Assembly (NCBI GenBank): GCA_965235115.1
Contig: OZ249436.1
Location: forward strand, 7,752,001-7,816,000
Length of the DNA stretch: 64,000 nucleotides
Origin: Laetmonice hystrix
Taxonomy: Eukaryota
Reading direction: 5' to 3'
Shown: positions 651 to 64,000 of the stretch, one piece after another
Layout of the letters: every line of letters starts with the position of its first letter
Numbering within the stretch: position 1 is the first letter of the stretch
Made by a program: the position numbers and the translations under genes
The notes under the pieces: generated by a model
What the model was told of the DNA's origin: nothing
The model's database searches: none
The model's input: only the letters and a program-made list of their open reading frames with translations

Positions 651-1548
651 TATCATTGGGACTTGTCTGCGACAATCTATGGCTCGTTATATCATTGGGA
701 CTTGTCTGCGACAATCTATGGCTCGTTATATCATTGGGACTTGTCTGCGACAATCTATGGCTCGTTATATCATTGGGACTTGTCTGCGACAATCTATGGC
801 TCGTTATATCATTGGGACTTGTCTGCGACAATCTATGGCTCGTTATATCATTGGGACTTGTCTGCGACAATCTATGGCTCGTTATATCATTGGGACTTGT
901 CTGCGACAATCTATGGCTCGTTATATCATTGGGACTTGTCTGCGACAATCTATGGCTCGTTATATCATTGGGACTTGTCTGCGACATCTATGGCTCGTTA
1001 TATCATTGGGACTTGTCTGCGACATCTATGGCTCGTTATATCATTGGGACTTGTCTGCGACATCTATGGCTCGTTATATCATTGGGACTTGTCTGCGACA
1101 TCTATGGCTCGTTATATCATTGGGACTTGTCTGCGACATCTATGGCTCGTTATATCATTGGGACTTGTCTGCGACATCTATGGCTCGTTATATCATTGGG
1201 ACTTGTCTGCGACAATCTATGGCTCGTTATATCATTATTGGGACTTGTCTGCGACATCTATGGCTCGTTATATCATTGGGACTTGTCTGCGACAATCTAT
1301 GGCTCGTTATATCATTGGGACTTGTCTGCGACATCTATGGCTCGTTATATCATTGGGACTTGTCTGCGACAATCTATGGCTCGTTATATCATTGGGACTT
1401 GTCTGCGACAATCTATGGCTCGTTATATCATTATTGGGACTTGTCTGCGACATCTATGGCTCGTTATATCATTGGGACTTGTCTGCGACATCTATGGCTC
1501 GTTATATCATTGGGACTTGTCTGCGACAATCTATGGCTCGTTATATCA
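651..1548. repeat. 39-bp minisatellite, ~23 copies (TATCATTGGGACTTGTCTGCGACAATCTATGGCTCGTTA)
   Basis: Directly visible tandem units, with 38-bp (GACATCT) and +3-nt (CATTATTGGG) variants. Explains the repetitive ORFs at 574-1576. Confidence 0.97.
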
Positions 1549-3119
1549 CTGTTCCATAATACTACAGACTGACTGATCATTTAGGATCAGAACTAAACTC
1601 TCTGGAGATATTCTGTACTGCTAATAACCGGATATATATGAAAATCATTCATTACATTCCGCCACATTCCGGTAAACACGTTTTGACGATGCCTTAATAA
1701 TAAGTGAGCCAGAATGATCAATACGCGCCCATTTGACATGAATTAGTATTTGCTAATGCGTTATCATATGAACTTGATAAAGCGAGATTAGGGCCTGGCT
1801 ATAAACACCTTGACTGATTCCAAACTGGACCACATCTTTCATATTTGCCGAAACAGTAAATCTTTCTAACATTCACACAATATAAACACATTTATCAGTA
1901 ACTTATCTGGATATGAACCTAGCCGCACACATGATCACTGAACATTATCAGACTGGAATGATTAATAATATTGTAATCTATTTTAACCATCTGGATAAAG
2001 GTTCTGGGCCCAGTTTGTAAAAACGTAAACTCCTGCTTAAGCTAAGCTTTAAGCTTAAAGGCCTGGATTCGTTACCACCAAGTAACGTTGACCTCTGCTG
2101 ACCCTGCTCCACTGGTTCAGGCCAGCAGTGGGCGGGGCTGCACTGAGCTAACCTACACACTGGCACCGGGACGGCTTTTATAATCGGGGTCGGTCTTTAA
2201 GCAAGATCTTCTTTTTTTTCTAGTTCCTGATTTGCTTGTCGCCTCACTGAGAAAGTTTCCTCCACTAGTCAAACTGAACCCCACCATACACAGTCTCCCC
2301 TCCTGTACCTCTCGCTCTTCATGAGGCGGAACCCTGTACATGTATTTTAAAAGCAAAATATCGGAGAGTTATAGGAATATTTGGACTAGATCTATACATA
2401 AGCATTTTACATACAATCTCCATACAAAATCGGCTGCTCTATAATATTACCTTACCTTGAATGTCAACAAGATACTAATCTACTACCGGTATATCATGGA
2501 TTTACTTGTGTGCCAACAAGCCAAGGCATGTATGCCGTTCATGCTTGTACCAAGAATGCTGTGAATGGAGGCCTATCTTGTATCATCTCCAGTCATCATG
2601 CGCCTCACCTAATCAGGTAAGTATAGCATCTGTCACTTAGAAAATACAGATCTGCCATATTCAGTACATCACATGATTATCAGGCTGGTTGGCTGCCTTC
2701 GACGCTACAAGTATAGCTCAGAAAAATTGTAACTTTTATATTCATCAGCATTTTGACACTGAGTGAAATGTATAGGAAATGATTTTCTAAATAGGAGTTT
2801 TATAGAATCCCTTAAATAATATAGGAAATCTGGGAGGCCTGATATCGTCGAGTCTGTAATGTCCTCGTCAGGTCACATAAGAAAAAACTTACAAACGTAC
2901 AGCACGTAAACAACTTGTTTAAAGTAGTGTTAACTATATAAGTAACGGGAACTAGAGAGTTCTCAGGGCAGTCAAGTTGGCAAGTCTCCATCCATTCACC
3001 GACCGCGTGTGTACATGTGTGTAGGTACTATGACTGGAGGCAGGTGGACTTACCTCTCTATCACCCCGCTATACTCAGTACAATAACCCGCGGTCCGACC
3101 TGGCTGGCTGTCTGGTTGT

Positions 3120-3320
3120 ATGTGGACCACTGTGAGGACTCACACTCACCCTTACACACCAGGTAAACTTGGACTGGTCTATAGCATGTGGACCAGTGTG
3201 AGGACTTACATACACACCGTTACACACCAGGTAAACTTGGACTGGTCTATAGTATGTGGACCAGTGTGAGGACTTACATACACACCGTTACACACCAGGT
3301 AAACTTTGACTGGTCTATAA
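3120..3320. repeat. 66-68-bp tandem repeat, 3 copies
   Basis: ATGTGGACCA...CACACCAGGTAAACTTGGACTGGTCTATAG starts at ~3120, 3186 and 3254. Confidence 0.9.
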
Positions 3321-16456: not shown

Positions 16457-19400
16457 ATGTCGCACCGTAAGTTACCGGTTTTAACTATTTTAATACATTC
16501 AAGATAAACGTAAAGGTTTCATGCAAAGTAAAGGCCTAGCATCCGTAAACAGCCAAACAGTAACAAAGTAACATTCATTGCCTGTGTCTGTGAAGCTGAA
16601 TCGGGGATGTCGCCCACATTTATTTTTAGTGGAACACTTTGAAGTTTAAGTGGGGACACTCCCAAATCGGGGATGTCATGGGGATGTCACTGTTAATGAA
16701 ACTGGCCCCTGCCCTGGCCTGGGTCATTCTGTGTGAATCCACAGTGACATTGAAGAGAGTCCAACTTCAACTACCCAGCAATAGTGAATAGGCAGTGGCG
16801 GATCTAGACTAGTGTGGGTGTGTCGCTCAGCCTCAGGTAGCTTGAGTTGAGCAACAGTCAGCCCCCCCCCCCGGTCTCGGTCGAAATCGGCCGCCCGTAA
16901 TAACCTACGGACGATCGGGCGTAGCACGCGGCGGCTCTGCTAGCGGAGCTACCCGCGGGACTAAACTACCGCTAACCCTAGGCCTAACCTTAACCTTAGA
17001 TCTAACCCTACTAACACTAACCCTAGGCCTAACCTTAACCCTACTAACACTAACCCTAGGCTTAACCTTAACTGCCTCTAGAGGCCCTGGGTGAGTACAG
17101 CCGCCCGTAACTTACGGGCGAGTACGGCGTAACTTACGCGCTGCACGCGCGGCCAATTTCGAGCGGCGGCTGATTTCGATATACACCCCCGCCCCCCAGC
17201 ATTGCTTTGCCTTTGGGGCTGTTCGCGGCTTCTGACCGTCACCCTCAGCTACAGTCAGGGCTCAGGCCTGAGCTACAGTCGGGCTTTGTCTCTGGATCCG
17301 CCCCTGATAGGTACATCTCATCTATAACGTTACACAATTTGCCATGGCAATATATTACAAATAACTACTTTTTTCCTATTTTTTCATTGTTAGCCTGTCT
17401 CATCCCTGACTTATTTAAGAATAAAAAAACTTTTCCTTCAGTATGGCAGCATCCCTATGTGAACGTATTCAAGCACTTCAATTTGCAAACATGGAAGAAG
17501 TCGTCCAAGGAAGGAGAGGTTACATCTCTCATGGTAAGAACTACCATCCATTAAACATTAAAGTTGGTACCAACATCTAATACCATTGAATTATGAGTGG
17601 TGAATATTGCTTGCAACCATGTACTTGGTGATCTCTTTGCATCCTCTTGTGACTGCACTGAAGACTCATTAACCACCCTTCAGTTGTTAGTGACTTATGA
17701 GAGGGGTCTGCTGGAAGGTGCAGAACTTTAGATGTTGCATGTTACAGAACCTAATCTGAATGATAATGTGTGTTTCAGGACAAGACAGTCAAGAGCAGTG
17801 TGTATCGGATCACTGGTTCAATTCCAGCAGGAAACTACATTCAGCTACCGAAGACCTCAACTCAGTCACTGGGTTTGACAGGCCGCTACATGAATTTGCT
17901 CTTCAGGCCCATTCCATCTAAATACTTTGTGGTCCACATCGATGTTGCCACACAGGATGGACTCATCGTGAGGATCTCATTTTCAAACCTCTTCAAGGAA
18001 TTCAAGTCTACCTCGACATGGCTTCAATTTCCATTTGTATGTCATACAGCAAAAGGAACCATTGCAGGGTATGCCGGTATTGGAAGCAAAGGTACGATTC
18101 AAATATTCATAAGCTAGAATAACTAAAGATATTCTGACCTATCTGACATCTTCAATTGACTTTTATTTTCAACTTCTCTATTTCATGCCATTTTGCATTT
18201 CTATTATCTCGTAAACCGAAGAAAAGATTTTAGTGCACTTTATATTTTTCCCCACAAACAATGGAGCAAGAAATTATGATTATGACCCCAAAGGTCCAGT
18301 CTGGCTCGCAGGTTGGAAGTATTAATAGTTATTTATGGACCACTCACATGATGCCGAGTGGACCTATGTGTGATGTCATTTTGCTTTGTTTCCCTCATAA
18401 ATTAAACAGACAACAGTGGGCCAGCACCGATATCGACTCGCTGGACTGTGCTGTGTTTGGACTTCCACTATATACTTTCCATGTATCTCAACCGGCGATA
18501 TTCCTACATTAAAAGCATCAAGCTATGTGCCAACATGCTTGTGAAGAACATTTTTACAAGTGATACACAATATGACCCAGGTAATATGACCCAAATTTTG
18601 AATGACTTTTAAGTGTTTCCTTGTTGCCATAATACACCTAATATCCAGAGTTCTTGTGGACCCTTTCCACCCTGCCAATGTCTATGTGATACAGAATTAT
18701 TATGGCTTGTATGACAACAGGTGTAAGTTTGGAAGAGGTGAAGAGAACAGGAGTCTCTGTCCATGGCTTGGCCCCTCTTCCCCGCGAGATGGCCTACCCA
18801 GTTAGCAAGGGACAGAATTGGCATGACCACTATGATTTCCTCACGTAAGAAAAACTGCAATGCATTATGTAATATGTAGATACATACCAGTCATTAGGAA
18901 TTTGGCATACCACTAATGCTAATGCTTTTTGGGTTGTCATTATGCCATAAGAAATAATCAGTCCAATATTATTATTTTTCAACGTCAAAGCCCCTCTATT
19001 CTGTGACCAATTTTAATGTCCAGGCTTGAAGTTGAAGTCACTACCTCTGAGTTGATACTTTTAAAAAGTTTTACTGTAGCCATATTGCACAAAGTATGTA
19101 TATCACATGACTAATTTTTGTGTCAGAGACCATTTGGAATTGGTCTGAGGTCTTCTGTTTATGACTGCTCATTGACATTAGAAATTTTCATCCTCATTCA
19201 AGGTAGTAACTATTTGTCTGTTCCAGATTTCCAACAGATTCTAGCAAGAAGCCTTTTGATTCCATACAGCATGGGCCAATGAGTCCAAGCCGAATAAGAC
19301 GAGGTCAGAAAATATTTTTAGCATACCCGTTCATCACTGACCTGATAGATATGTTGCATGAAATACATTGTATGTAAGATTCTGGTACATGTACTTCACA

Positions 19401-22400
19401 ACTCCATGTGCTTTTGAATAATTTCTCCATAGATCTATAGAATCTTATTATTATGCAAGATGTACGAAAAGTTGATGTTTTTATTATATGTTTCTAATAT
19501 GATTATACAGCTGTTGAAACAAGTCCACGTCGTGTAGCATCTAAGACGGTTCATGTCGCAAAGCATATTGTACCTGAGAAATCGTGTGTTATAAGTGCAG
19601 CAACAGCAAAACCTAAACGGGTAGGTTCTGTGTCTATTTTATACATGAAATCATTAAAAAGCACCAGATGGAGCAGGAGTGCCTGAAAGTAATAAAAGGT
19701 TGTAATTTTAGAGGTTACCTGGTGCAGATGGCTATGAGATCTGACACAACCTCACCAGATATTGTCTTACCTCCTAAATGCTGGTGTTAATGTAATACTT
19801 CTTTATGCGTGTTTAGCATGTGCATCGCCGTACAGTTGTCTCAGAACTGCCTCAGGTTGGAGTGGGTGTAAATGGTGATGTCAGCATTGAACAGAATCCT
19901 GAAGGAGAAGTGCATGTTTATGCCCACGCTCAAGATAAAGTAATAGTTCATCAGGAGGACAAGAGTACTGGTAAAGTAAGTTTCTTGGAATATACTGGTG
20001 CATGAAGATTTTGTGATTTTTCCCATTTATCTTGTATATTGCATAACTTGATGTCCATTAGTTAGCAGAGAAGTGCCTTTTATCAACATGGTTTTTGTTG
20101 AGCAGGTAACAACTACAGCAATGAAACCTCCCTCGATACTGCCTGCCAAGAAGCCATCATATACATGTCTGAAGCCTGACCCAATCTTAAAACTGCGCCG
20201 GATTGTTGGCTTTGGTGGTGCAACAGTAAAGGATGTAAGCAACCTCACAGAAAAATTCTGAATGGAAAAGATTTCCCCTTTGATTTGTGTAGAGAACTCT
20301 ATCTACTAAGATTGAGCATACTTGTAGTTTTCTATTACCATGTTCTGGTCTCATTTTTGCAGGCCTTGTGGACCAGCAATGGTACAGCTGTTGTATATCC
20401 TTGTCATGCTGTAGTGGTTGCAATGCAGGCAAACAATGGCCAGCAAAGGTTTTTCATTGGACATACGGACAAGGTAATATGCCAGTACTGAGAACATTCC
20501 CGTGGTAATAGAAGCCAGGCGAATAATTAATATTTTCCATGCTTTTACTAGAAAGGCCAAGAAATGGATACAAAATTCGGTGAATGAAAAAGAACCTTTG
20601 ATTATTGACTGGTTGTACCTTGCAGTGTCATGTTAAGTCTTGTACAAGTTCTCCTGTTCATCATCCAGTCACAAAGACATCTTGAAGGAAGAATTTAATC
20701 AGATTGTCATCCATATTGATGAATTATTTCTGCAGGTGTCGTGCATTTCTCTGAATGGTAACAGCTCCCTGCTGGCATCAGGGCAGACAGGTAGTCAGAG
20801 TGTGGTGCGTGTGTGGCGCTTTGATAATACAGAGTGCCTGGCCATGTTCAAGACACACGCCCATTCCATGCATTGCCTCAGGTAAACCATTAACGCAAGT
20901 ATGGATGCTCGAAATAGAAAGTGTCTGTTGTTGTAAATGATCTGCATGATGCATATTGTAAACCTTGAGGACTTGATGTACAGTATACATCTATCCTAGC
21001 AGCATATTTAGGTGGTCACTGATGTAGGTTTGTTTGCCATAACGTCTCATCATCTCCTGCTATTCGATGTATTTCAGTTTTTCCCAGAGTGGAAGTGTTC
21101 TTTGTGGTGTTGGCAAAGATACGCATGGAAAGAATGTAAGCATGCCAGAACAGCATTCTGAGAGTAGCTCGACCCTGTTATAAGATCATGCATGGAATAT
21201 GGCAGTAAGCCACATAACATGGAACAACTGTCAATAGCTCTAAACTTTTTGGTGATTCTTTGTCTTCTTCTCCCTATGATACCCAAGATATTTCACAGTT
21301 TTGCCCATGAAAATGGCACTGTGATTTTATAGAAGTGTTACAATCCATGAGATGACTATTGTGATCAATTCAGATGGTTGTGATCTGGCGAACAGATAGA
21401 GTTAGCAAAGGTGGTGAAGTGTCAGTGATTGCCAAGGCTCATACAGATGTCGACATTGTACGCATGAAGATTGCTGCATTTGATGACACAAGGTAAGCTG
21501 ATCTAAAGAAAAATTTTGATCTAGGAATATAGAACCTATTAATCAAACCGACAGGTTGCATAACTGCAGATTTAATTGGATTCGTTCTGATTTTTGTGTA
21601 TCAAGATAACAAAAAATCGGAACATTCCTATTTTCAAATTTTCAGATCGCAATATATACATCAAATAATGTCAACTTTTAAGGTTCAAAACAGCCTTTCC
21701 TTAGCTTTAAAAAGGCCCCAAAATCCAGTAGCTCACGGAGGCTCTGCCCCCTGTACCCCTGCCTTGGTGGCCCCCTGGACCCCTCGCCGGTAGTGTTCAG
21801 ATTTCTGGTTTTCCAATGTTGGCAGGTATGAGGTTGTCTTGTAACAGGCAGCAGTTTTTAAAGGTTTAACAAAAAGTAGAACAGCAGCAATTAGAATAGG
21901 ATTATTCAGCTTCCTCTTCAAATACAGATTAGAGGCCCATTTTATTGAGGGTAAAAGACATTTGGTATTGCAGATGGCTTCCTACTATGCCCAAGGGATA
22001 CTGGTATACAAAGTAACATGTGGTCATTGTATTGTCAGTGCATAAGTGACACTGTGACCGGTTCCCTATATGCTTTCTATATGTGTTTACCTTTTCTATA
22101 ACATGGTTTCAAAAAGTATTGTTTCCTAATATTGTTTATGTTCTGTGCATGAAGATTAATTTTGTTGAATTATGCACATAAGTTATATATGTGCACACTG
22201 TATACTTTGAATTTAATGGTACACGTACCGGTACTTTATTATGTAAGTCTTGCTCCTATTGTAGTTTTTTCCTCGTATCATTTTATGTATCTTTTACATT
22301 GGGGGAAAAAATTTAGTTCATTGTATTCAAATTTGTGTGGTGAAAATAATTGTACACATGTATGTATGGCAGGTAAAGCCTTTTTACATGATAGTCAATA

Positions 22401-25400
22401 CTTCTTTATGTCAGTACTTCTAAATGATGCAGTCATAGTTTGATTATTTTGTGAGCATCCTAAACTGTATATGGAAATGTTTTTCTTTGTCAGGATTCTA
22501 AAATAATATTTTGTGATTTGTTTGAACACAGGATGGTGTCCTGCGGCCGAGACAATATCCGTCTATGGCGGGTGAAGGATGGCTCACTAAGGTCAGCGCC
22601 AGTAAACCTCGGCGAGTATCACCTCATGGAATTCACAGATTGTGCCTTTGAGGCAGGCTATAGTGCAACATGTGACCCAACAGACAGGCTTGTGTGAGTA
22701 CAACTAAAAGTGTCAGTCCGCTTGGAGACCTTACAGTTGATGTGTAGTTAGATTATGGTTTTCATCGAACCTGAGAATATTGTATTTCCTTGTTGTTTTG
22801 TAGGGTTAAAAGTACAATACATGAAGTCAATCAGATATACTTATTGGTGATAAGTTTGATGTTGTTGTTCCAGTTATGCTTCCAGTCGCTCGGGTCACAT
22901 ATTTGAGATTGACTATCGGAAGGTTACGATCCAACATGTACGTCGACTCTTGCCTGTCGATCCAAAGTCAAAAAAAGACAAGCAAACCTTCAACTCTGGT
23001 ATGTCACAGGTTTTTGTTTACCTGCCATTCTGACTGTAAATCCATCTTAGGATAAAATACTACTGATGTGGTACTGTTACCGTACAATTAAAGTTTTAAT
23101 TATTTTCAGTGCACCAGTCCAGGCCATGAAACTGCTTTCTCTACTGACAACACAATGAAACCTTTGAAGTGTCACGGAATATTCACTGTAATCCCAACAT
23201 AATGTGCACTGCCATCATGCATAACATGCTAATGTAGTGTAGTACAGTATCTGTTGTTTAAAGTGTCACCTGTATGTGTATATTGCAGGTTCTGGTATAG
23301 CCATCAATAGCATGTGTGTGAATGAAGCCTTCTGTGTGACGGGCTCAGATGACGGCTACCTAAGGCTATGGCCTCTAGACTTTAAACACGTCTACCTCGA
23401 GGCTGAACATGAAGGGCCGGTCACAGCTGTCCATATCAGCACTGATGGAGTCAAGATTCTAGCAGCAACTGCCATGGTAAACCCTACAAAAATACAAGTT
23501 TTCTGGACTATGTCTTGATTATTTCAGTTGTATTGTCTTTGTTCTGTCCTGTGATTTCTGTATAACAACAGTCAGATTGCATTCTTTAAAGTCTGAATGT
23601 ATGACATGTGGTCTCAATGCATGACATCAAATGGTAACATCACATTTGAAAACTTTTCAAGGGGAATGTTGGCGTACTTGATATTTCAACTCGGGGTTAC
23701 ACGACAATCATGAGGTCACACACCCAGCACATCAAGGCGATGGCATTCGACCCATTACGGCGCCACCTAGTAACAGTATCAGAAGACCACACTATCCGGG
23801 TCTGGGACTTAGACACCATGCAACAGGTGAGAACGGGGGCTGGAATAATCAGGAAATATGGAATTTAACAGTTTAACAAAATTATTTTTACTGAAGAACT
23901 CGGATCACATGGCAGTGCTGTTATTAACATGGCAGTGGTCTTTGTTCCACAGCTGTATGATTTCAGTGCTCCTAAGGAGAGTCCCTGTGCCATAGCGTAT
24001 CACCCATCACAACAAGTGTTTGCTTGTGGCTTTGAATCTGGGGCAGTTCGAGTATTCAATGTCACCAATACCAGCATGCTGGCAGAGCACAAGTAAGTCG
24101 GCCTGTTTTTATCAGCCTACTGAGTGGAATGATATTGTGTTGTGTAATAGAATGATGTTAGCAGATATATTTAATGTATCTATTGTTCTATACAGATAAT
24201 ATGCTGTCGATTTCAATCCTTAACAACTTGACCTTCAGGCAGCACCGTGGTAAGGTCACAGGGATAGCGTTTTCCCCTAATGGAGACTATCTCTACAGTG
24301 CTGGATCCCTTGGGTCTGTGGCACTCTACGACGCTACAGAACACAAATATCACCTGCTGCGGGTACTTGGCAACACGGTCGGCCGAGGAGAGCATCACGG
24401 TCCAGCGTCATTGGCTGTTAGTCCGGATGGCCGATTTGTTGCATTTGTTGGGCCTTCCGAGTTTACTGTCACTGTTGTGGATGGAAAATCTCTTGATGAG
24501 GTAAATAAGATAATGCGATGAAACAGTTAGCATTTACTGGTAGACCAAGTATTTCTATACGAGTATTTAGAGGTTACCATCTATTTCTGACCTTTTGGCC
24601 CATCTCCACTTTGACAGTTTCTAATTTCTATTTTCTGTGTGAAGGTGATGAGAATAGACATCACGTCCCTCAATACGGCAGATAACACACGGACAGTGAT
24701 AGACACAGCTGTCAAGGTTCACTTTGCATCCGTCAATGTCAAACATCTGCTCGTCACCACCTCCTCCAACAAACTACTCAAGTTTGATGCCAGGAATGGA
24801 AAAATTCTAGCAGAGGTGGGGAACTGTTCTGTATTGTTATCTACTTCTGACATCATTTAAATCTAGATGTGTCATAAAAACTGCAGCCTGATAGAAAGTT
24901 TTGAATTATGGTTTTTTAAACGATAACCGTTCTAGTTCAATATGCATGGACAATCTGAACGAATTTCTGGCTGACAGTTGTGTGTGATTGTTTGAGCAGA
25001 TTGACAACATTCACCGTGCTGGATGCTCGGCATTGGATGTTTCCACAGATGGACGACACCTTATCACAGCTGGTGATCGCATCATCAAAATCTGGGACTA
25101 CCATATGAAGCTTGATCTTAACTTCCAGGTAAACCCTTCTACAGGAAAAATGGAAAAAATTATAAAATATAGAAACGGTTTGACTAATATTACATTAAGG
25201 AGAGAAACACGCGGATGACATAACTTGTGTTCTGATTATCTCTGTATATCACAACTTGTGTTCTGATTATCTCTGTGTATCACAACTTGTGTTCTGATTA
25301 TCTCTGTGTGGCACAAGTTGTGTTCTGATTATCTCTGTGTGGCACAAGTTGTGTTCTGATTATCTCTGTGTGGCACAAGTTGTGGTCTGATTATCTCTGT

Positions 25401-28400
25401 TTGGAATAAGTTGTGTTCTGATTATCTCTGTGGTACAACTTGTGTTCTGATTACCTCTCTGTGTGGCACAACTTGTGTTTTGATTATCTCTGTGTGGCAT
25501 AAATTGTTCTAGATATCTCTGTTATTTTTGTAGGTATTCATTGGGCATGCAGAGACCATTTCCCGAGTGATGTTTACGCCAGATTCCCTGAGTGTTCTCA
25601 GTGTAGGTGAAGCTATCTTTATGTGGGACTTCCTCGCTCAGTGTAGAGATACGCCAGCCATGGAGTAAGTCAAGGAAACATTGTACTCTTTTTCTCAAAC
25701 TTTAAAGAGTGAAAAATTGTTTATATAGGAACAATTGTGTAATAATAGCTGTTAAAATAGATACCTCAACAAGGTAGAGATTCTGTATGTTATTGTTTTT
25801 AGAACATCTCTGTTAAACTTTTAATCCTAAACTCAAGCTTTGCCTTTTTGTCCCCAGGGGTCGTACCTCTGTGAAGAACTATTACACTGGTGAAGGTAAA
25901 GTTTGCAATTAAAGAAATTTTGTGTCTTGTTTAGAATTAATCGAGAGGAAAGCATCAATTTAAAACCATAATTAATAGAACAAAACTTTGGTATTCCAAC
26001 ATGGTGAAAATTAAATAGTGATTATTAATGTGATATCTGCCATGAGGTGTTAGTGATTTAATGATCAATAGTATCAAGTCCAGCTGGCATTGTTTGTTTG
26101 AATTTGTAGAGGAGGAGTTGAATCCTTACAGAGGGATCGGCCTGAGTCCTGGCCGAGCGACAGCTAGCTCACGGATGGGGCTGATTAATGAAGGCATACC
26201 TCGGCACCAAGTCCCACGACCCACACTCTATGACCCCACCACACAGATTGATAATCTCAGCATTATAGAGAAAACTTCTAATGGTGGTAAGGATATGTTA
26301 GCTTGGAGGTACTCTCTGCCTGCCATAGTCTATCTAAGGTGCTACTTTCTTTGTATAGTGGTAGTTCTCTAGAAAAAAGGAAAGGTGGTACAGTTTTTTC
26401 AAATGAAAACGAATGATGGTCATTTCATTCCTTAAAGATCTGCTGGGAGATGAAATTCGGTCAGTGAGTGACTTCTCTGAGAAGGAGGAAGTTTTAATTG
26501 GTCCACAACTCAAGGTGACTGTTGAATCAGACGATGAAGAGGAAATTGGTCTCAAGTCAGGGAAGGAATTTGTAAGTACACAGCTGTAGAAAGCTTCTTT
26601 GTCTTTCTAAATTTACATAAAATCACACTTAATCAAACAACTTGAAATACTTGATATCTGTCACCTTTAATGTGAGAATATTTATTTTATTTTCTTCAAA
26701 ATTTTACTGATTTAAGAATAGATAAACTAAATGGAGGTAAGACTTCAAACTCGAGTTAAAAACAAACTTTTCCTCTTATTTTTATTTTCAGGAGCCTGAA
26801 ATAACAGGCCATGAGGTGTTGGGACGAAGCCCTCAGGTCGAGAAACACCAGAGGCATGCCCCACCTCAGAAACTAGTGGCAACACCTGGTAGTCCTAAGA
26901 AGCGTGGTGATGTTGAACGTCGTAAGCCAACAGTCCAGAAACATTTTATTCAGCGACCCAAACAACATCCATTGGCTCAGGTAAGACTACCGGTAGCTGA
27001 ATTGTACAGGGTCCACACAACGATTCCAAAAAGGCCATAATACCAATAAATATTTTAAGAAACTGCCTGAGTAAATGATGACTTGATGTGGTTTCAGAGA
27101 AGGTACACAGCACCTCCAAGTCAGGCTGGAATCCGACTACACTCAGTAATTGGTTATAATGGTAACGGTCGTGGTAACATGGTGTGGAACGCTGACACTG
27201 GAGTGTTTGCTTACACCTCTGGCTGTGTGATTGTGGTTGAGGATCTCAGTGTGGGAACACAGCAACACCTCATGGGTAACTTACAAACTGTCTACTCTCA
27301 TAGATCTGGATTTTCTGTACAGTCATGTACAGTTCATATACAGTGTGACCTCAGACCTTTGTTAACTGAATACCTCGGTTCCCATTAAAATGCATTGGAT
27401 TGTGAAACATTCAGTATTGAGGTTGCTGAATTGTCTTAAATAGAGAATGTCAGAAAAGGTTCCCAGAAAGTGTTTTCTGATTGTGGGGTACTGTGGATTA
27501 TAGAAGCACAGATTAGTGAGGTCTGACCTTAATTTTGACTCCCCAGTTTTTTGTACCGTAATTTTTGTTGTTGGTGTCGCTTGTCAAGGTCATGCTGAGG
27601 AGATCTCTACGTTAGCACTGCAGCATGACTGTCAGGTAAGGATGTGAGCCAGAGTACATTACTTCATGTCAACATTTACTTCTTACATTAATTTCTGACG
27701 ACCTCGCATAAATCCAAGCTTCTTGTTGCTCTTTTTCTCCATGTCACAGTAAAGTGTGAACTGTTTGCAGGTGTTGGCGTCAGCGAGTGGGTCGTTTGGT
27801 CTGTCTGTCAGTCACATTTGTTTGTGGGACCTTGAGAACATGACATGTAAAAAGGTTCTCAGTCAACATGACAACGATGTCGTCTGCTTGGCTTATTCTC
27901 GTGATGACCGCTTTCTCATCTCAGTTGGTATGGGTCCACAAGTTTTAACAATATCTGGGCTCTGTAGAAAAGAAAATTTAAGGATATCATATTCAGAGCT
28001 CTATAAGAGTGGACTGAATTTCTGTCTGAATGTTAAAATTGGGTACAAATCATGTATGTATTCTGCCATATTTTATGTGCCATTGGGAATGACAAAATTG
28101 AAAAGTGCAGAACATATCAATGAATCTCTTAGTTTATCAAGTTCATGTTATTACTGGCATGTGTTTTCTGACAGGGGATTACAAGGACTGTTCTGTGGTG
28201 GTGTGGAGCACACAGTCCTTTGATATAGTGACGTGCACCCAAACAGATGTCCCAATACATGACCTCAAGTGGGACCCGTACACTGTGAATGAATTTACCT
28301 CAGTCGGGGAGAACGGTACTGTCCTCTTCTGGTTGTTGGATGAGACGGGAGTTACTGCCGTACTCAACGTCCATGAGGCAGATGTTCCTGAGGAGTTACT

Positions 28401-31400
28401 TCAAACTCACCACATGGTATGCAATCTTTCCAAAATTCAGTAAAATTATTTGTAATTCCTGACTTTAATCCCAAGACCAGGATAAGGATTTAAAGATGTT
28501 AAAATGACAGGATGGTTTTGACTTGAGGAAATGAAAATGTCCCGTGTGATTTAGAACGATTGACATGGCTTTCATTCCAGGGAAGTGGCCAGGTAGATTT
28601 TACCTGTCTGGAATATGCAGGAGATAGTACTTTGTATGTTGGTGCAAACAATGGAAAAGTCTCGGCGTGGGACACACGCCAGAACTCATGCTTCATGCAC
28701 TGGGAGGCTGACACACATGAAATTGGTGAGCAGCAGTAACAAATCTATTGGTTTAATTTCAAATGGACCCATTTTCTCATCATCGAAGGGATCTAAAATG
28801 ATGCAAGAATCGGCATGTGTGCTATTTTCAAGATTTATTTCAAATTTGAAAAGAATAAAACAAGTGTTCGTAGAGATCTACTAGAACAAGGGATTTCGTT
28901 TTTATTACACGGCAAAAGACTAAGTTGTCTGATTTGCATGTTCAGTAGGTATTAAGTCAAACATTGTGTGCCATGACAGATATACTGGTTGCCCATGCTG
29001 GCCGTCTCATCACTGGCAGCAGTGGCTGTAATGTGCGCGTGTGGTCAGTGGTTGGCGTGGCAGAGTTACGGTTGCCTGGCGACAATAACACCATGAGAAC
29101 AGATGGACTCGCCATGGAGGATGAGATGAATTTGGATGGACCCATTACCACGGCAGCATTTGATGAAACCATGGACATGGTCAGTATATTGGCATAAACC
29201 TGTGGATGTCACCACTTAAACAGTACCTGGCATGTATACAAAATACCAAATATCACTTTGTAATGTTTGATGATGTCATGTTATGGCACATTCAAAATTG
29301 TAGATACTGGCGTTCAGTGGTATTTCGGATGCCCTTCTTATTCAGGGGTGGCCTATGTTTCATTTTGAGCACCTGCCATGGGTTAAGTGGTCTATGAAAA
29401 TCTACTTGCCATCCCCTGCAATCTAATAGCCTCCGATACTTTCATTACTGGTCGTTGGTTTAATCTTAGCTATAGTTGCACTTGCCACTGAGCGTGGTTT
29501 ACTGGACTTGCCTGGCCCTTGATATTATCATAAAAACAAAATAGTGCAAAGAAAGAGAGACCTATGTTCGTTGTGAAGAGATAATATAGGATGGAAGGTC
29601 TCGAAAAGAACCAATGTAGAACCAGTGTCAAACTCCTATATTACGGTACCTACTCGATCTGTCAGGGTATCGTCGGTACATCGAGTGGAACGCTGTGGTA
29701 CATCAACTGGGCTGAGCGTACCAGTATTCGGCTGGTGTCAGGTCACAAAAGTAAGGTGAATGATCTGGCACTGTGTGATGACAAGTTCCTGGCCTCCTGC
29801 TCCGATGATGGCAGTCTCCGGGTGTGGTCAGTCAGTGATCGAGAGCAAACCCTGCAGTTTCAGGTCCGAGATCAGGTGAGCTGGGCAGCATATATCTGCT
29901 TAATCACATTGCAATATGCAAGGAATTTTTTCTTTTCCTGGGACGAACTTTTTTTCTCACTGGAGAAGAAATGCTGTTAATTTGAAACATCAAAGCAGCA
30001 CGAAATTATTGTTGTCACATTTTTTCACATTGTCCCCCCTTCAGCAACTTAGCATCGTTTTTGATTTTCTGCTAGTCGTGCACCTGCCTTGCCTTTTCTC
30101 CAACGTGGCCTGCCAAAGCATCAACAGTGACCAGAGTAAGTAACTTGGAGGGTACGGCGGTGGTGGCCCACAGCCAGAGGGAAGATGGCATCCGACTTCC
30201 TAATGTGGTAGCTGGTTACAGTGACGGAACAGTGCGTATGTTTGACCTGAATAAGGTGGAGCCTGTACTTAAGATGCATCCCCATGCCGTGGCTGTCACC
30301 GCTATCACTTTCTCAGCAGATGGTGAGCATTAAGAGTTTTACTGCACCTGAACATGGTGTCCAAGAAATTTGTACTTGTATGCAAAAAAAAGACAACAAT
30401 TGTGATTTACTTCTAAAATTAACTATTTAAAATGAACAGTAAGATAGAAAGCATTATAAGATGAGGGTCAGCTCACAGGAAACATTTACTTCCATTGTAT
30501 CAGTTTATGTGAAACTTCCAACATCTTGTCTCATGCACAGGTCGTATGATTCTGTCGGGAGGGAGCGATGGCCTTGTGGCAGTCAGCAGTCCAACAACAG
30601 GCATGACAGTTAGAGTCATCAGTGACCACAAGGGGGCGCCTATCACCTGTCTTGACGTCACTGTTTCTGATGTAGGTCTTTTACAGTCACATTCAGGAGG
30701 AATACAACATTTCTTAAATAAGGTGTCGGTATAATGTTGAGAATCGACCTATAATCAATTACAAGATTGGTAACAAAGGAAAACGATGCATTAAGGGTTT
30801 GTTGATAGAATAAGTTGTTTCATTCAGGATGTGGACGTTGGGGTGAGTGCGCCATTGTTGTGGCTGGCAGTAAGTGCTGACCGGCGTGTTAGCATCTGGT
30901 CCGCTGACTGGTCCAAGGACTCGTGTGAACTCATCGATTGGCTCACCTTCCCTGCGCCGGCATTCACACCAGATGGTGCTGTCGTCAAGCAAGATGACCA
31001 GGTCTGTATCTACGATAACAATTTGTCAAGGCTCAGATTTGTCCTTCCCTTTTGTCAGAAAATACTTGTTGGCTGGTCACAATAAAAAGTAGTGTAATCT
31101 CTGTGGCATGAGGTAATCGTATGTAGCACTGCATATATGTGACACCTTTCTTTTGAGGATGTTATTACAGTCTAGTTGTGTACAGTGCAGTGAGGCTGAC
31201 TGATGACTTATCTGTCATCTAACGACTTTTCTAGAGCTACTTCCAGAGAGTGCCTCCAAGTCTTGCCCAGTTCTCCACAGATGAACCAGACATTGTCATC
31301 TACACTGGTTATGGCATGCAGAAACAAGTGCAGTTTTACAGTCTGACTGAGAGGAAGGTAGTGCGGACCATGGCTTTGACTCACTGGGCCAATGCCATGC

Positions 31401-31706
31401 ACATGGCATCCAACTCTCCCATCATCAGCATAGCAACAGATGGTGAGCCCAATAGTAGATTTTGCCTGGAAAAAAAATCTAACATTTTAGTATCCCCGCC
31501 TTATGGTCTGTATTGTAAAGAAAACTTAATGTTCGACCTGGTTTGTTTCAGAACGCCTCCTCAAGTTAATGGATTACTATGAAGGGAGCTTCCAGGATTT
31601 TGTAGGCCACAACGATGCTATTCAGATTGTGCGTTTCTCCCCAGATGGTAGTAAACTCTTCTCGGCCTCCCATTCGGAAATACTCATGTGGGAAGTCTGC
31701 ATATAG
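16457..31706 (+). CDS. WDR90: WD repeat-containing protein 90 (N-terminal CFA20/DUF667-like domain plus multiple WD40 propellers; centriolar protein), 38 coding exons, ~1907 aa
   Basis: N-terminus MSHLWQHPYVNVFKHF...DKTVKSSVYRITGSIPAGNYIQLPKTSTQSLGLTGRY...ISFSNLFKEFKSTSTWLQFP matches WDR90 as recalled; many GH...WD repeats follow. All introns are GT-AG and phase-consistent. Exons: 16457-16466, 17442-17533, 17779-18091, 18410-18580, 18721-18844, 19227-19303, 19511-19620, 19817-19975, 20106-20234, 20363-20473, 20736-20881, 21078-21135, 21374-21492, 22532-22693, 22874-22998, 23289-23476, 23662-23826, 23953-24092, 24239-24500, 24645-24815, 25000-25128, 25534-25664, 25858-25895, 26110-26286, 26438-26571, 26792-26980, 27098-27275, 27589-27635, 27771-27927, 28175-28416, 28581-28725, 28980-29179, 29666-29875, 30076-30322, 30541-30671, 30828-31001, 31235-31442, 31552-31706 (TAG). 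Confidence 0.95.
16793..17306. mobile_element. MITE (CAGTGGCGGATC...GATCCGCCCCTG) in WDR90 intron 1, with a nested TAACCC-rich repeat at ~16880-17186
   Basis: Imperfect TIR, ATAGG duplicated on both flanks; the inner element is homologous to 10347-10550. Confidence 0.75.
25219..25522. repeat. ~31-bp minisatellite (~10 copies) in a WDR90 intron
   Basis: ACAACTTGTGTTCTGATTATCTCTGTGTGGC-type units, ending just before the 25533 acceptor. Confidence 0.93.
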
Positions 31707-32491: not shown

Positions 32492-33660
32492 ATACAAAAT
32501 GTATAAGTTTTGTCAAATGAATTACTGGTGTATAATCTATAATCTTTTGTAGTGCTTGAGCGGAAATTGTAAGATTTCGTCTAAAGGAGAGATTGTTTAG
32601 ATGTTCGGAACTTTTAGTAGCTATTTATTCTATAGCAATACGATGAGGCCAAGCAACAAAACTTCACACAACCTTTTAAATAAGATATCATCGGCGCAAA
32701 GTTGATTAAGCTTCAAAAGGACATCAGAAAATCTTTAACTGGAGTGGATGACGTGAACGCATGATGTTAACTTCTGCTTGCCAGTTCAAATGTTATAGAA
32801 AACTTTGTACTTCATATATTTAGACTGCCGAGGAGAAGCCGAGGGTGTATAGGCCCGTGCCGTTAGTGTGAGGCCAACAATATTTTTGAGACAGAAATTT
32901 TGCAGATAAACAGAGTATGTTGTCCTCTTTCAAAATTCAGCAAAAAAAGATACCTCACCGGGTTAGTTTTTTTTTGTTAAGAGCGTTTGAAATTGATATG
33001 TTCTTCATGTTAATGAATAGCTACACTGTTTGCAATTTTTTTTTACCACTTCTTTTTGGCCTCAAACTAGCACTTTGTCCTCAAGGTATTCATAGAATCA
33101 TACTGCAAAGTATGACAGTGCCTTGGACGCGACCAAAACATTCATGAATACTTAAACTAACAAGACTACTGATACATTGAATTCGTTCATGAATTATAAA
33201 GGCTGGCTTCCCCTTCACAACCCGTCGTGCATGATTGGTGATGTACACTCGTCATATCGAACGTCATCACGCGTTGCTGGAACCAGCTTAGTTAGTATGA
33301 GGAAACATATGTTATATTGATGGAGATCTGTGGTAAGAGGAAACGGTCGAACCTATTCACGAACAAACTGGAAGGTCTCCGGTAGCCTTCATGTAGCGCT
33401 TCACAAATAATTTGAAGCCGGCCTAAGTTTTCCATTCGATTTTTAACAATAGTTCAGTTTTAAAAAAATATTATGGAGGTTAATTACAAGTGGATTTAGT
33501 GGGAACAAATGCAACGGTCGACCGAGATACTCCGGAGGTTTTAGGCCTAACTATGAAGGACTGAATTCAGTTTCTGAGGAGCATATAGCCGTGTCCAAAT
33601 TCAAGACGAGAAGTGAGAAGAAAGAACGTTGATCTCTTTTGGAATTTCTAAAATAAGACT

Positions 33661-36600
33661 ATGAATAAGGTGACCCAGTTTGAGCTCCAGTTGACAAGTC
33701 AAAAACCTTTCTTCAGGCCTGGCGATGACATCGAAGGTATCGTTGTTGTGGAAATAACCGACAAACTGAAAGTGAGAGGTAAGAGTTTAATTAAATCAAG
33801 ATCATTAATGATTAAGACATTGTCTCGCAAATTTCAAGTAATACCCGGCTTTTCACGCCAAAAATGTCTCCATAGCGTTTCGCGTTTCTAAGTTATCAAT
33901 ATCATCCATAGCTCCCCCAGCCATCTATTTGTGTGTTTTTTTTGTTTTGTTTTTTGTTTTGTTTGGGGGGGGGGCTTTTTTGTAATAGAAAAGTGTCAAA
34001 ATCGAGACCCAATGATGAGGAGCTCAGCACAAATCTGAATATTCGGGGGGGGGGGCAAAATCCGATCTGAAAGACAATTACAGGACAAAATCCGACACTC
34101 CCGCAAGGGGGGAGGGGGTGCCCTATCCCGATTCCTACTTATGACTGCCCCTATTTCGCCTTATGGACATGTAATAGGTATGCCTTATTATTTTAGGTTA
34201 TCCCCCCCCATGTGAGATTAATTATGCCATGCATGTCTGCCTCTGCCTATGAATGATAGGCCTATATAGCCCCCCCCCCCCCCATGCCATATGATAGGCC
34301 AATAACCTTTACAATGTTATTGATTTTCGACGTAAATATTAAAGATGTAATATTAAATATTAAACAAAATTCCATTATGAAGATTAGTTAGTATGTTGCT
34401 GTGTTTACAAGGGGTCGACCTGAGGTTTAAAGGCCAGGCTCGGGTCCACTGGCTGGAGAGAGAACTATAGTTAGTATGTTGCTGTGTTCACAAGGGATCG
34501 ACCTGAGGTTTAAAGGCCAGGCTCGGGTCCACTGGCTGGAGAGAGAACTAGTTAGTATGTTGCTGTGTTTACAAGGGATCGACCTGAGGTTTAAAGGCCA
34601 GGCCCGGGTCCACTGGCTGGAGAGAGAACTAGTTAGTATGTTGCTGTGTTTACACGGGATCGACCTGAGGTTTAAAGGCCAGGCTCGGGTCCACTGGCTG
34701 GAGAGAGAACTAGTTAGTATGTTGCTGTGTTTACAAGGGATCGACCTGAGGTTTAAAGGCCAGGCCAGGGTCCACTGGCTGGAGAGAGAACTAGTTAGTA
34801 TGTTGCTGTGTTTACAAAGGATCGACCTGAGGTTTAAAGGCCAGGCCAGGGTCCACTGGCTGGAGAGAGAACTACTTAGTATGTTGCTGTGTTTACACGG
34901 GATCGACCTGAGGTTTAAAGGCCAGGCCCGGGTCCACTGACTGGAGAGAGAACTAGTTAGTATGTTGCTGTGTTTACAATTGGATCGACCTGCGGTTTAA
35001 AGGCCAGGCTCGGGTCCACTGGCTGGAGAAAACTAGTTATAGTATGTTGCTGTGTTTACAAGGGATCGACCTGAGGTTTAAAGGCCAGGCCCGGGTCCAC
35101 TGGCTGGAGAGAGAACTAGTTAGTATGTTGCTGTGTTTACAAGGGATTGACCTGAGGTTTAAAGGCCAGGCCCGGGTCCACTGGCTGGAGAGAGAACTAG
35201 TTAGTATGTTGCTGTGTTTACAAGGGATCGACCTGAGGTTTAAAGGCCAGGCTCGGGTTCACTGGCTGGAGAGAGAACTAGTTAGTATGTTTCTGTGTTT
35301 ACAAGGGATCGACCTGAGGTTTAAAGGCCAGGCCCGGGTCCACTGGCTGGAGAGAGAACGAAGCAACGGCGACAAAAGGCGTGTCGTTACCAAACGATAT
35401 CACAACAAGGAAATCTACTTCAATACAACCATCCTACTCTTCGGAAAGCGTTCGTATATAAATATATACCTAATATACTACACATTTACGTAAAGACCTT
35501 GTATAATTAGGCCTATTTATTTCTTTTCAGAATATTAACCGTTACAAGGTTTCTTTTATGCCTATAGAAACAAGTGTCAATCGGGGGGGGGGGGGGCGCA
35601 CCAGAAAGTTTTAGCCCCTGCTGCTGCACCTTTAATTGTGTTACTTATGATAATTGATATATAATGCTGATCATACTGTGACGAGCTGGGATGGACCCCT
35701 CCCCCCAGCGTAAAGACTGTAAAACGGTAAAAACTTTGCTTCAGACAGTTTCTTAAGAAGACGTCTCTAGAGGCCTATCACGAGAAAAGATTAACCCTCT
35801 GCTGTTTTCTCACACATTGCAGCGGAAGACGCGCCAGGAGATAATCCAGTTCACCCCGCAGGCCTATTTAAGTACCCCTTCAATTTCACCCTGCCCCACG
35901 ACATACCCTCTACATTTGAAAGTGCCTACGGAACCGTTTCATATTCCATTCATGGTGACCTTGACCTACCCTGGGCCATCGACAAGTCCTTCAACCACCG
36001 TTTCAAGGTCGTCCGTGAAGTCGATTTGAATGCAATGCCAGAAGTTAAGGTTTGTTTGAGCCTACCCCGGTACATAGGCGACAGACCTATGTAGGCCTAT
36101 AGAAATTGCCTTGAGCATCATGTTTTAAAATAGGCCTAATGATAAACTTCTTCTCAGGGCCTTTGTAGGCCTTTATGAATAGATCTCTCTAGATCTCGAA
36201 GGCGATGGCGCCTACGTCCAGATGACGGTGCGTGACGGTTTAGTGTTGGGCTTGACTAGGCCTACACATACCTTTCTTCACAAAGAACAACATTATAAAT
36301 GTTTAAATTGCATTCTAGAAGTTTCGAATTTCTCCAGCAAGGCAATCAGTGCCCGCCTTGCAGGAGAAATCGAGATACGGCGTCCACCATATAGGCTACA
36401 TCCTATGAAATGGGCTGACCTTTTGACTTTTCCACAGGAGCCCCTGGGCGTGACGGGGTCGCGAATGCTGTGCTGTCTGTGCTGCAAGCACGGCCCAATA
36501 TCTGGGGATATTTACATTGAACGGATTGGTTACGTGCCTGGCGAGGATATCGTCATCAACGCCGACATTTCCAACAGAAGTCGGCGTAAGATTCTCAGGA

Positions 36601-38562
36601 CGCAGGCCACACTTCTCCAGGTTAGTCCTTCAATCAAAGGTCAGTATACTTTTCAAGGTTAGTCCTTCAATCGAAGGTCATTATACTTTTCAAGGTTACT
36701 CCTTCAATCGAAGGTCATTATTCGCCAGGTTAGTCCTTCAATTGAAGGTCATTATACTTCTCTAGGTTAGTCCTTCAATTGAAGGTCATTATGTACTTCA
36801 CCAGGTTAGTCCTTCAATTGAAGGTCATTAGGCCTATAGGTACTTCGCCAGGTAAGGTCCTTCAACCGTAGGTCATTAGATCTATAGTCTAGGCTGCTTC
36901 GTCAGGTAAGGTCTTCCATTCGTAGGTCATTAGATCTATACTTCTTAGGTAAGGTCCTCAAACGGCCTGTCGACGTCTATAGACCCTGAAAATACCGTTA
37001 CTGCCATTTTGTCTTGGCACGGCAGTGGGCCTACAGCCATCGGATATAAAGCTCTCGCTACGACCCAAGCACCCAAGCCTGGCCATCCACACTCTCTGAC
37101 ATTGCTTTGGGTCGAATCCTATTTGAGTGGACTCATCAATCGAGGGGGGAGGGCTAAAAGGAACCATTATGCAAGTGATGCATAGTAAAGCTGCTTTAAA
37201 TGAGGCATAGATCTATCCATTCATTTTAATGGCGTTAAGAGGACTTCTATACGTTTCCTATTTTTTTTTTACTTGTCTTATTCTGAATTGTCATATACCA
37301 TTACAAATGTGGAATACATGCCTATCTGTTTAGAGAAGGTTGTCTCTTCCTTTGTAGACAACGTATTACCGATCGACAACCAAGACCAAGACAGTCATCA
37401 CCGACCTGGCGGCTCACACAGAAGAGGCCGACATTCTAGGAGGAAATCATTTCCACTGGGAAAACATAAAAATAAACATACCAAACTGTCAACCTTCCCA
37501 CTTCAAATACTGTGATCTCATGAATATCCAGTACCAGCTCAAAGTGAGTTTCGAAAAATACCTGATTTCCTCCTGATTTCCTGATTTGCCTTTCTTTTTC
37601 ATCAGTGTGTAGATTTTGTAACTAAATCCATGTATAGACTGCAGACACGGGCCCAGAGGGCCGGGGCACGTGCCCCCTCTAGACCAAAAGGGGCCGATCC
37701 CCGTTCTATATATTTCAGACCAACGAGAGTAAAGGAAAAGGTTATGACTGTGCCCCCCTAGGCCCCCCTCCTGGACCCCCCCTGTATAGTCTAGGCCTAA
37801 ACAACAGAAGGTAGTACCGGTAGTATTAGTGTGATATGTATAGATTGGTAGCATACATTGGGCAAGTCGTCACTGAGATACACATTTTTCATGTTTAATT
37901 TCTTAATTCTTTAGTTTTTTATCGACGTGGCTGGACCCGCTGTGGACTTAGAACTACCACTACCCATTATCATTGGCACGGTGCCCGTGGAGAAGATCAC
38001 TACGCCAACAACTACAGAAATATACGCCCAGGAGAAAACAATGGATGTGCCTATAATAGCCCAACCACAGACGGCCTCCTCGCCATTCCACCCGATGGAG
38101 ACGGAGGAACCTTCCCGATCTCCACGACCAGGTAAAACAGAGGGGTTAGTCCCAGAGACTAAGCACAGTGTATAACACTGCGAGTCCACATATTCTTTCC
38201 GAGCAAGGGATTTGCGGTTAAAGTGTAATGGACCCCTGAGCGACACTACCGAATTGGAACTGCAGTTTTGAAATTCTTGCCCGAGCCAACGGCTACTTTT
38301 CATACACTACTACTCAATCTGCGCGCCAATACCGACTTTTCATCGGTTATCAATTCTTCGACAACCCTCTATAGATCATCGTGCAAGGTTCCGGTACTTT
38401 CCATAGCCAGTTTTTGTTTAGCAATATGTTATACTCTGTAGCATTGTTGTGTGTAAAAGACCATCTGCTGTTTATTAATTACACATTGTTTCAGAATCAA
38501 CGCGGGTATCAACGCCAGTCGCTGATATTCCGGATGCCACACTCAATGCATCTAATATCTGA
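33661..38562 (+). CDS. Arrestin domain-containing protein (alpha-arrestin/ARRDC-like), ~372-380 aa
   Basis: Arrestin-N/C motifs FRPGDDIEGIVVV, GIDLRFKGQARVHW, KYPFNFTLPHDIPSTFESAYGTVSY, LCCLCCKHGPI, GYVPGEDIVINADISNRS, IQYQLK, LELPLPIIIGTVP. Exons 33661-33778, 35306-35449 (weak donor C|GTTCGT needed for phase), 35823-36049, 36438-36620, 37358-37543, then either 37915-38175 (TAA) or 37915-38131 + 38495-38562 (TGA). Confidence 0.9.
34385..35358 (+). repeat. 81-bp minisatellite, 12 copies, spanning the intron 1/exon 2 junction of the arrestin gene
   Basis: Unit GTTAGTATGTTGCTGTGTTTACAAG|GGATCGACCTGAGGTTTAAAGGCCAGGCCCGGGTCCACTGGCTGGAGAGAGAACTA. Marker ATG at 34393, 34476, 34557, 34638, 34719, 34800, 34881, 34962, 35044, 35125, 35206, 35287. 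Confidence 0.97.
36617..36960 (+). repeat. 34-54-bp degenerate tandem repeat of the arrestin exon-4 donor region
   Basis: Units GTTAGTCCTTCAAT(T/C)GAAGGTCATT...(C/T/A)AG. Confidence 0.9.

Positions 38563-56060: not shown

Positions 56061-64000
<7,940 letters not shown>

Follow-up and report, generated by a model that had tools for sequence, protein, structure and literature searches.

A mirage-like 81-bp array repeats the intron 1/exon 2 junction twelve times in an arrestin-domain gene of Laetmonice hystrix

Repeats that lie across exon-intron junctions have been named "mirages", and a search of the literature for junction repeats under that name found only two papers, both on amphioxus (PMC3087553 and PMC3902484). 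In the first of them, mirages are described at either boundary, and many of their units keep the AG or GT (Ebner et al. 2010; PMC3087553). Haplotypes vary in copy number, homogenisation affects the inner units and leaves out those at the boundary, splicing was regular by RT-PCR, and the authors model intron gain from the repeats (PMC3087553). Pavelitz et al. (2013) added mirages in PGBD5 and troponin C, in which splice sites are duplicated and no aberrant mRNAs were found (PMC3902484), and the mirages of the amphioxus genes Adh3, globin and troponin C are described as leaving regular splicing undisturbed (PMC3087553, PMC3902484). Donor-side counterparts have been described in humans. In human F7, a 37-bp VNTR of intron 7 has its first unit across the exon 7 donor, and only this first donor is used (Borensztajn et al. 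2006; PMC1557585). According to the introduction of that paper, only the authentic donor is used in lamin B2 and PDGF, and the two pseudo-donors nearest the authentic donor are also used in human 6-16 (IFI6) and CBS.

Here we describe an array that matches the mirage kind known from amphioxus and is akin to the human donor-side VNTRs of F7, 6-16 and CBS. It lies in a window of 64,000 nucleotides, the whole stretch of DNA that was analysed (contig OZ249436.1, positions 7,752,001 to 7,816,000), and all positions are numbered from the first letter of that window. The host is an ARRDC-like arrestin gene with the following parts, a slash marking the splice junction:

33661..33778, plus strand: exon 1, with ATG at 33661, donor GAG/GTAAGA, an end in phase 1 and a weak Arrestin_N match (profile 1-33)
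33779..34384, plus strand: intron 1, unique part upstream of the array
34385..35359, plus strand: tandem array of 12 units of 81 bp, made of the end of intron 1 and the start of exon 2
35306..35449, plus strand: authentic exon 2, with its acceptor in copy 12 of the array (gtatgtttctgtgtttacaag/GG), donor AGC/GTTCGT and an Arrestin_N match (profile 35-79)
35823..36049, plus strand: exon 3, Arrestin_N, 60.5 bits (cut-off 24.9)
36438..36620, plus strand: exon 4, donor CAG/GTTAGT, Arrestin_C, 28.5 bits (cut-off 27.7)
36611..36887, plus strand: second array of about 7 copies of a unit of about 37 bp, which combines the final 10 nt of exon 4 with the donor CAG/GTTAGT and some 27 nt from intron 4
37358..37543, plus strand: exon 5, Arrestin_C match (profile 57-112)
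37915..38178, plus strand: exon 6, read to the first stop, with an internal CAG/GTAAAA as a candidate further donor

The six exons joined give 372 open codons, and all introns are GT-AG. The bit scores above were obtained with exon 3 alone and exon 4 alone and are set against the Pfam gathering scores; exons 1, 2 and 5 gave matches below the cut-off to adjoining positions of the arrestin profiles, and the end of exon 2 is matched by exon 2 of the nearest paralogue (L010). Exon 3 has at least ten further matches in the genome, the best of which is 43% identical, and therefore the ARRDC-like gene has no recent duplicate. An Rfam scan of positions 33000-38500 returned no family. The acceptor of exon 2 has A at -3 and a pyrimidine tract interrupted by G, and by eye it is the weakest-looking of the five acceptors compared. 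The donor consensus is CAG/GTAAGT. Counted by hand against this consensus, the exon-2 donor AGC/GTTCGT has 5 of 9 matches, versus 6 of 9 for the CTA/GTTAGT that stands behind each decoy copy.

Could the arrays be part of the decay of a pseudogene? We consider this highly improbable given a reading frame of that length open over six exons, splice sites of the GT-AG type throughout and the recognition of both arrestin domains. Additionally, six of the seven haplotype-like differences in the exons fall at third codon positions and four of the seven are synonymous, a bias that fits a gene under constraint, although the other three change a residue and could be claimed for decay. The same could be said of the weak-looking splice sites of exon 2 and of the lack of a close homologue in a word-indexed protein collection, where the array ORF and exon 2 found no match among longer or similar-length proteins and exon 3 found none among longer proteins.

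For the array itself, Tandem Repeats Finder reports 34385-35359 with a score of 1758, a period of 81, 95% matches and 12.0 copies, and when the array is cut at a fixed anchor the head-to-tail units measure 81 bp in 10 of 12 cases, with 83 bp in copy 1 and 82 bp in copy 8. This bears out the original prediction, made from the sequence alone, of a twelvefold 81-bp array at the exon-2 acceptor of an arrestin gene, except that the proposed division of the unit into 25 nt of intron and 56 nt of exon was two bases off. The unit comprises 27 intron-derived nt and 54 nt that match the first bases of exon 2 exactly. The intron-derived part reads TA plus GTTAGT...TTTACAAG, that is, TA and then GTTAGTATGTTGCTGTGTTTACAAG, and it contains a putative branch site, a pyrimidine tract interrupted by G and an AAG acceptor. 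The 3' end of the array is the exact point at which exon 2 turns unique. As had been predicted, only copy 12 runs on into unique coding sequence, and only copy 12 has T in place of G in the pyrimidine tract. The AG is in place in 8 of the 12 copies and is shifted in one more. The copies upstream of the authentic one, which we call decoys, are as follows:

34385..34629, plus strand: decoy copies 1-3, AG intact, first exon bases 34412, 34495 and 34576, each leading to an early stop if used; copy 1, the 83-bp unit, has the sequence CTA TAG
34630..34710, plus strand: decoy copy 4, AG lost (ACACGG)
34711..34791, plus strand: decoy copy 5, AG intact, first exon base 34738, early stop if used
34792..34872, plus strand: decoy copy 6, AG hit by G>A with a new AG one base further on, first exon base 34820, early stop
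34873..34953, plus strand: decoy copy 7, without its AG (ACACGG), with CTTAGT in place of GTTAGT and an in-frame TGA at 34938-34940
34954..35035, plus strand: decoy copy 8, an 82-bp unit without its AG (ACAATTGG) and with small indels near its 3' end
35036..35278, plus strand: decoy copies 9-11, AG intact, first exon bases 35063, 35144 and 35225, adding 81, 54 and 27 residues in frame

The unit table thus agrees with what had been noted about individual copies, namely the loss of AG from copies 4, 7 and 8, its shift by one base in copy 6 and the TGA in copy 7. In copies 1, 3, 5, 9, 10 and 11 the 21 nt before the acceptor are those of copy 12 save for the one G/T difference, and the context upstream is common to copies 2-12. 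All matches to the unit in the 627-Mb genome (35 contigs) fall inside the array (12 of 12), and therefore the array is not a dispersed element. The opposite strand is also open across the array, with a minus-strand ORF of 189 aa that exists because the unit is stop-free, and for this reason the openness of the array carries little meaning.

Arrays of this design occur elsewhere in the same gene and in its relatives. In the exon-4 array the authentic copy comes first, the GT is kept in 6 of 6 decoys and the unit length of 37 is not divisible by three. In the nearest paralogue, located on a different chromosome, an array lies across each edge of exon 3. The acceptor edge carries seven copies of an 80-bp unit at 99% identity (31 nt of intron end and 49 nt of exon), and the donor edge carries 17 copies of a 46-bp unit, with the GT kept throughout. 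In a further paralogue (L016), two large arrays start about 10-30 nt downstream of donors, and the donors are not copied. This genome is prone to such arrays, given four junction arrays in two arrestin paralogues.

An artefact, in which the assembler created or over-expanded the array, is scarcely credible in our view. The region is covered as short contigs by three public runs from one sample and one study, possibly the assembly's own source; a search over runs of every kind listed these three and none of RNA, a result with no bearing on expression. Contig X1 record 3 (33827-34444) bridges the 5' edge and reaches into copy 1, and contig X2 record 11 (35321-35754) bridges the 3' edge. The summed word depth of X1 rises to as much as 252 within the array against about 50-60 in the flanks; this rise reflects the repetition of the words and is not a copy number. 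Furthermore, the copies differ from one another in a structured way, through 17 distinct events, and similar arrays lie at three other junctions. On the other side, these are data of one sample only, the copies are not countable from short contigs, and the amphioxus authors report a mirage that was mis-assembled in a draft genome (PMC3087553). The second set of letters in the contigs is probably the other haplotype. A loose end at 34987, present in all three runs, resembled a structural variant. Its 30 letters map to another chromosome, at a locus that has no more than about 22 nt in common with copy 8, and therefore the loose end was set aside as a chance match.

How closely does this array resemble the described systems? 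In amphioxus BflGb6, the 3' end of an intron and the 5' portion of exon 2 are repeated head-to-tail just as in the 81-bp array. Amphioxus mirages in general also share with it the position over an acceptor or donor boundary, the frequent retention of AG or GT and a terminal authentic unit that is slightly divergent. They differ in their dimensions, with units of 150-160 bp (BflGb6) or 10-72 bp (Adh3) in 3-6 copies, whereas here the unit is 81 bp in 12 copies. The host here belongs to another animal group, and the unit here is a multiple of three and stop-free. Moreover, splicing and length polymorphism were assayed in amphioxus, whereas the array here was studied as DNA sequence.

The human F7 VNTR is likewise a junction-spanning minisatellite with a row of identical pseudo splice sites, and the exon-4 array described above has the same design, the 37-bp unit being shared by coincidence. 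The F7 repeat is on the donor side, however, and its authentic site is transcribed first, whereas the authentic acceptor of the 81-bp array is the last of twelve; the 81-bp array is in effect the mirror image of the F7 donor model. The repeated splice sites of 6-16 and CBS provide the nearest precedent for a modest splicing "dial", the role proposed for the 81-bp array in the original prediction. Those repeats differ in being on the donor side, in that only the pseudo-sites adjoining the authentic one are used, and in that their use is backed by RNA.

A further likeness is to the Rogers model of intron gain, in which a segment holding AG and GT is duplicated in tandem, as outlined in PMC3087553. 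Each decoy consists of an acceptor, a 56-nt exon-like piece and GTTAGT, and GTTAGT is the authentic donor at exon 4 of the ARRDC-like gene and probably also at exon 3 of its nearest paralogue. The difference from the model is that there is no sign of a decoy turned exon, and the 56-nt piece would shift the frame. That such arrays may seed new exons and introns, as was suggested for this locus, is already a published idea for amphioxus mirages (PMC3087553).

To predict the outcome of each choice of acceptor, exon 1 was joined to every AG-bearing copy with the remaining gene unaltered. With the acceptor of copy 12 the normal protein results, with its stop at codon 373. Among the eight AG-bearing decoys, five give an early stop, at codon 59 (copy 1), 188 (copy 2), 161 (copy 3), 107 (copy 5) or 43 (copy 6, through the shifted AG), and three keep the frame, adding 243 nt (copy 9), 162 nt (copy 10) or 81 nt (copy 11), where the 81 nt translate without a stop as LVSMLLCLQGIDLRFKGQARVHWLERE. 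The products originally predicted for copy 12, for copies 1, 2, 3, 5 and 6 and for the intact copies 9-11 were therefore correct. Copies 9-11 are indeed in frame, yet this could be due to chance: a unit length divisible by three together with a stop-free intron part of nine codons has a joint chance of about 1 in 5 by a rough estimate, which is not unlikely.

These in-frame additions are what first speaks for the "dial", under which several acceptors would be used, copies 9-11 would supply arrestins with one to three extra modules of 27 residues, and copy number would tune the mix. A second point is the pattern of substitutions. In the alignment of the 12 copies, about 17 distinct mutational events can be recognised. 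Five of the seven substitution events in the exon-derived part are synonymous (p 0.01-0.03, according to the transition bias assumed) against none of five in the intron-derived part (Fisher p 0.028 for the two parts compared), and all three substitutions found in copies 10-11, whether or not private to them, are synonymous. However, the exon-derived variants of the paralogue's 80-bp acceptor array, which cannot be read in frame, are synonymous as well (2 of 2), and therefore translation of the decoys is not needed to explain the bias. Donor arrays lack it, with 0 of 5 synonymous in the exon-4 array (by eye) and a mixed result, about 2 of 4, in the paralogue's donor array. With the bias confined to acceptor arrays, we set aside the synonymous excess, a weak signal, as a sign of translated decoys; sequence exchange with the authentic exon, which is under constraint, or repeated copying of it could account for the excess.

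Other evidence also weighs against the "dial", which we regard as quite improbable. The module would double a pair of central strands of the Arrestin_N sandwich (profile about 34-52) and add a hydrophobic linker, LVSMLLCLQ, so that folding seems unlikely. Copies 4, 6, 7 and 8 show decay, and the published mirages leave splicing undisturbed (PMC3087553, PMC3902484).

The decay of the decoys has a pattern of its own. Three events destroy an AG, namely an A>C common to copies 4 and 7, a G>A in copy 6 and a G>T with an inserted T in copy 8, and as a result the AG at the homologous position is missing from 4 of the 11 decoys. With about 17 events in all, chance would place about 0.4 in these 2 of the 81 columns, against the three observed (p about 0.008-0.009, in a post hoc test on three events), which makes this a weak signal. 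The loss of AG from 4 of 11 decoys looks more like decoy silencing than like tuning, and an excess of such losses would be expected if the decoys were recognised often enough to be harmful.

It is on these observations that an unproductive-splicing sink might be proposed, in which the decoys capture a sizeable share of the transcripts and send it to NMD, output falls with the number of intact decoys and selection removes the AGs. The enrichment of AG-destroying events in the two columns is consistent with such a sink, as is the contrast between acceptors and donors, since the GT has been lost from 0 of 6 decoy donors in the exon-4 array and 0 of 16 in the paralogue's donor array. Furthermore, the decoy acceptors lie upstream and hence are transcribed before the real one, and five of the AG-bearing decoys lead to early stops. 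Still, the numbers are small, the test is post hoc and the loss in copies 4 and 7 is a single event, and the paralogue's young 80-bp array retains its CAG in 7 of 7 copies. We judge a sink of this kind to be unlikely.

Instead, we favor the hypothesis that the 81-bp array is a locally born and tolerated minisatellite of the mirage type, in which the authentic last acceptor is used and the decoys are ignored or used at the level of noise, and on the sequence evidence we consider this likely. We propose that the founding event was a tandem duplication of an 81-bp segment across the boundary between intron 1 and exon 2 in an intact ARRDC-like gene, and that the array grew to 12 copies, presumably through slippage or unequal exchange. 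Because the array sits inside intron 1, the gene would have remained functional provided that the acceptor before 35306 was used. The 11 upstream copies would then be decoy 3' splice sites, mostly ignored or used at noise level, and their rare use would yield early-stop transcripts or, from copies 9-11, in-frame insertions. The AG would subsequently have been lost from four of them. The copy-12 acceptor may win because only copy 12 precedes a complete exon 2 with its donor. Near-identical acceptors in a shared upstream context mean, however, that there is no strong sequence reason for choosing copy 12 alone. The weak-looking acceptor and donor of exon 2, the excess of AG losses and the pseudo-sites used in 6-16 and CBS also count against the favored view. 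The published precedent favors use of the authentic site only, as do most of the human junction VNTRs.

A wider reading would be that minisatellites in this genome arise preferentially at exon-intron junctions, through a link between splicing or transcription and local duplication, and that decoy acceptors, in contrast to decoy donors, are seen by the spliceosome so often that selection removes their AGs. We hold this reading to be possible but doubtful. With the 81-bp array excluded, three of the five large arrays in the arrestin-family loci that were examined span a junction, versus a rough 10-18% per array under uniform placement (p about 0.04), an enrichment that is suggestive only; closeness to junctions is inflated by short ancestral introns.

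The in-frame unit, the signal of AG loss and the presence of four junction arrays across two paralogues recommend this locus as a good test case, though not as a new principle. A working protein is reached only through the last of its twelve near-identical 3' splice sites, and in this it amounts to a natural experiment on acceptor choice. Together with the other junction arrays, it suggests that mirages are not confined to lancelets. Arrays of this kind can lead gene prediction astray and can make expression vary with the length of the repeat, and they have been put forward as a source of new exons and introns.

Two further arrays of the window, at 3120-3319 and 58373-58784, showed no link to exons on reading. 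Of the 90 window ORFs that reach 90 aa, 69 were compared with Pfam, the array ORFs and the arrestin ORFs already scanned being set apart, and only a WDR90/CFA20-like gene was recovered. This WDR90/POC16-like gene, with its CFA20 domain, lies upstream of the arrestin gene in the window, and one of its introns is filled by an array of 9.8 copies of a 31-bp unit, the end of which lies some 11 nt upstream of the acceptor at 25534.

The arrestin gene carries a second array at a splice junction, this one over the exon-4 donor. In each unit of about 37 bp, the final 10 nt of exon 4 are followed by the donor GTTAGT and some 27 nt of intron, and the GT is intact in all six of the decoy donors. Arrays also lie at or near splice sites in two arrestin paralogues of the same genome, L010, the nearest, on another chromosome, and L016, a further one; array positions within each paralogue are given on the reverse strand of the locus.

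Window 36611-36887: second junction array of the arrestin gene, about 7 copies
L010 (G000:C3:43451779-43454982), about 967-1557, reverse strand: exon-3 acceptor array, 80 bp x 7, 99% identical
L010, about 1680-2505, reverse strand: exon-3 donor array, 46 bp x 17
L016 (G000:C2:743472-746633), 390-1341, reverse strand: first large array, 23 bp x 43
L016, 2625-3032, reverse strand: second large array, 64 bp x 6.6

The L010 arrays are independent in origin from those of the window. Both L016 arrays begin approximately 10-30 nt 3' of donor sites, the second of which is putative, and in both the donor sites themselves lie outside the repeat units.

Upstream of the arrestin gene, a WDR90/POC16-like gene has an array that fills most of a 405-nt intron and ends about 11 nt short of the acceptor at 25534, the pyrimidine tract of which its unit resembles. 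Together with further minisatellites, tandem arrays make up about 8% of the window, by a rough sum over the arrays detected.

Window 17767-31579, + strand: WDR90/POC16-like gene, CFA20 domain and WDR90 beta-propellers
Window 25222-25522: intron array of this gene, 31 bp x 9.8
Window 650-1548: minisatellite, 39 bp x 23
Window 3120-3319: minisatellite, 68 bp x 3, carrying the motif CAGGTAAAC
Window 58373-58784: minisatellite, 59 bp x 7, ending in TTTATTCAG
Window 62395-63002: minisatellite, 16 bp x 38

Three of the five donors of the arrestin gene (window 33779, 35450, 36050, 36621 and 37544) have T at position +3 (GTTCGT, GTTTGT and GTTAGT), and GTTAGT is present in every unit of the L010 donor array. 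In most animals, donors with T at this position are uncommon, and the feature may therefore be a trait of this species.

Introns 1 and 2 of the arrestin gene also contain short segments bounded by long runs of G or C (10-14 nt).

Window 34020-34060: G/C-run segment
Window 34200-34290: G/C-run segment
Window 35575-35600: G/C-run segment

Short DNA contigs from public runs of one sample link 35601 back to 34044, and this suggests a small repeated element that has poly-G at its ends.
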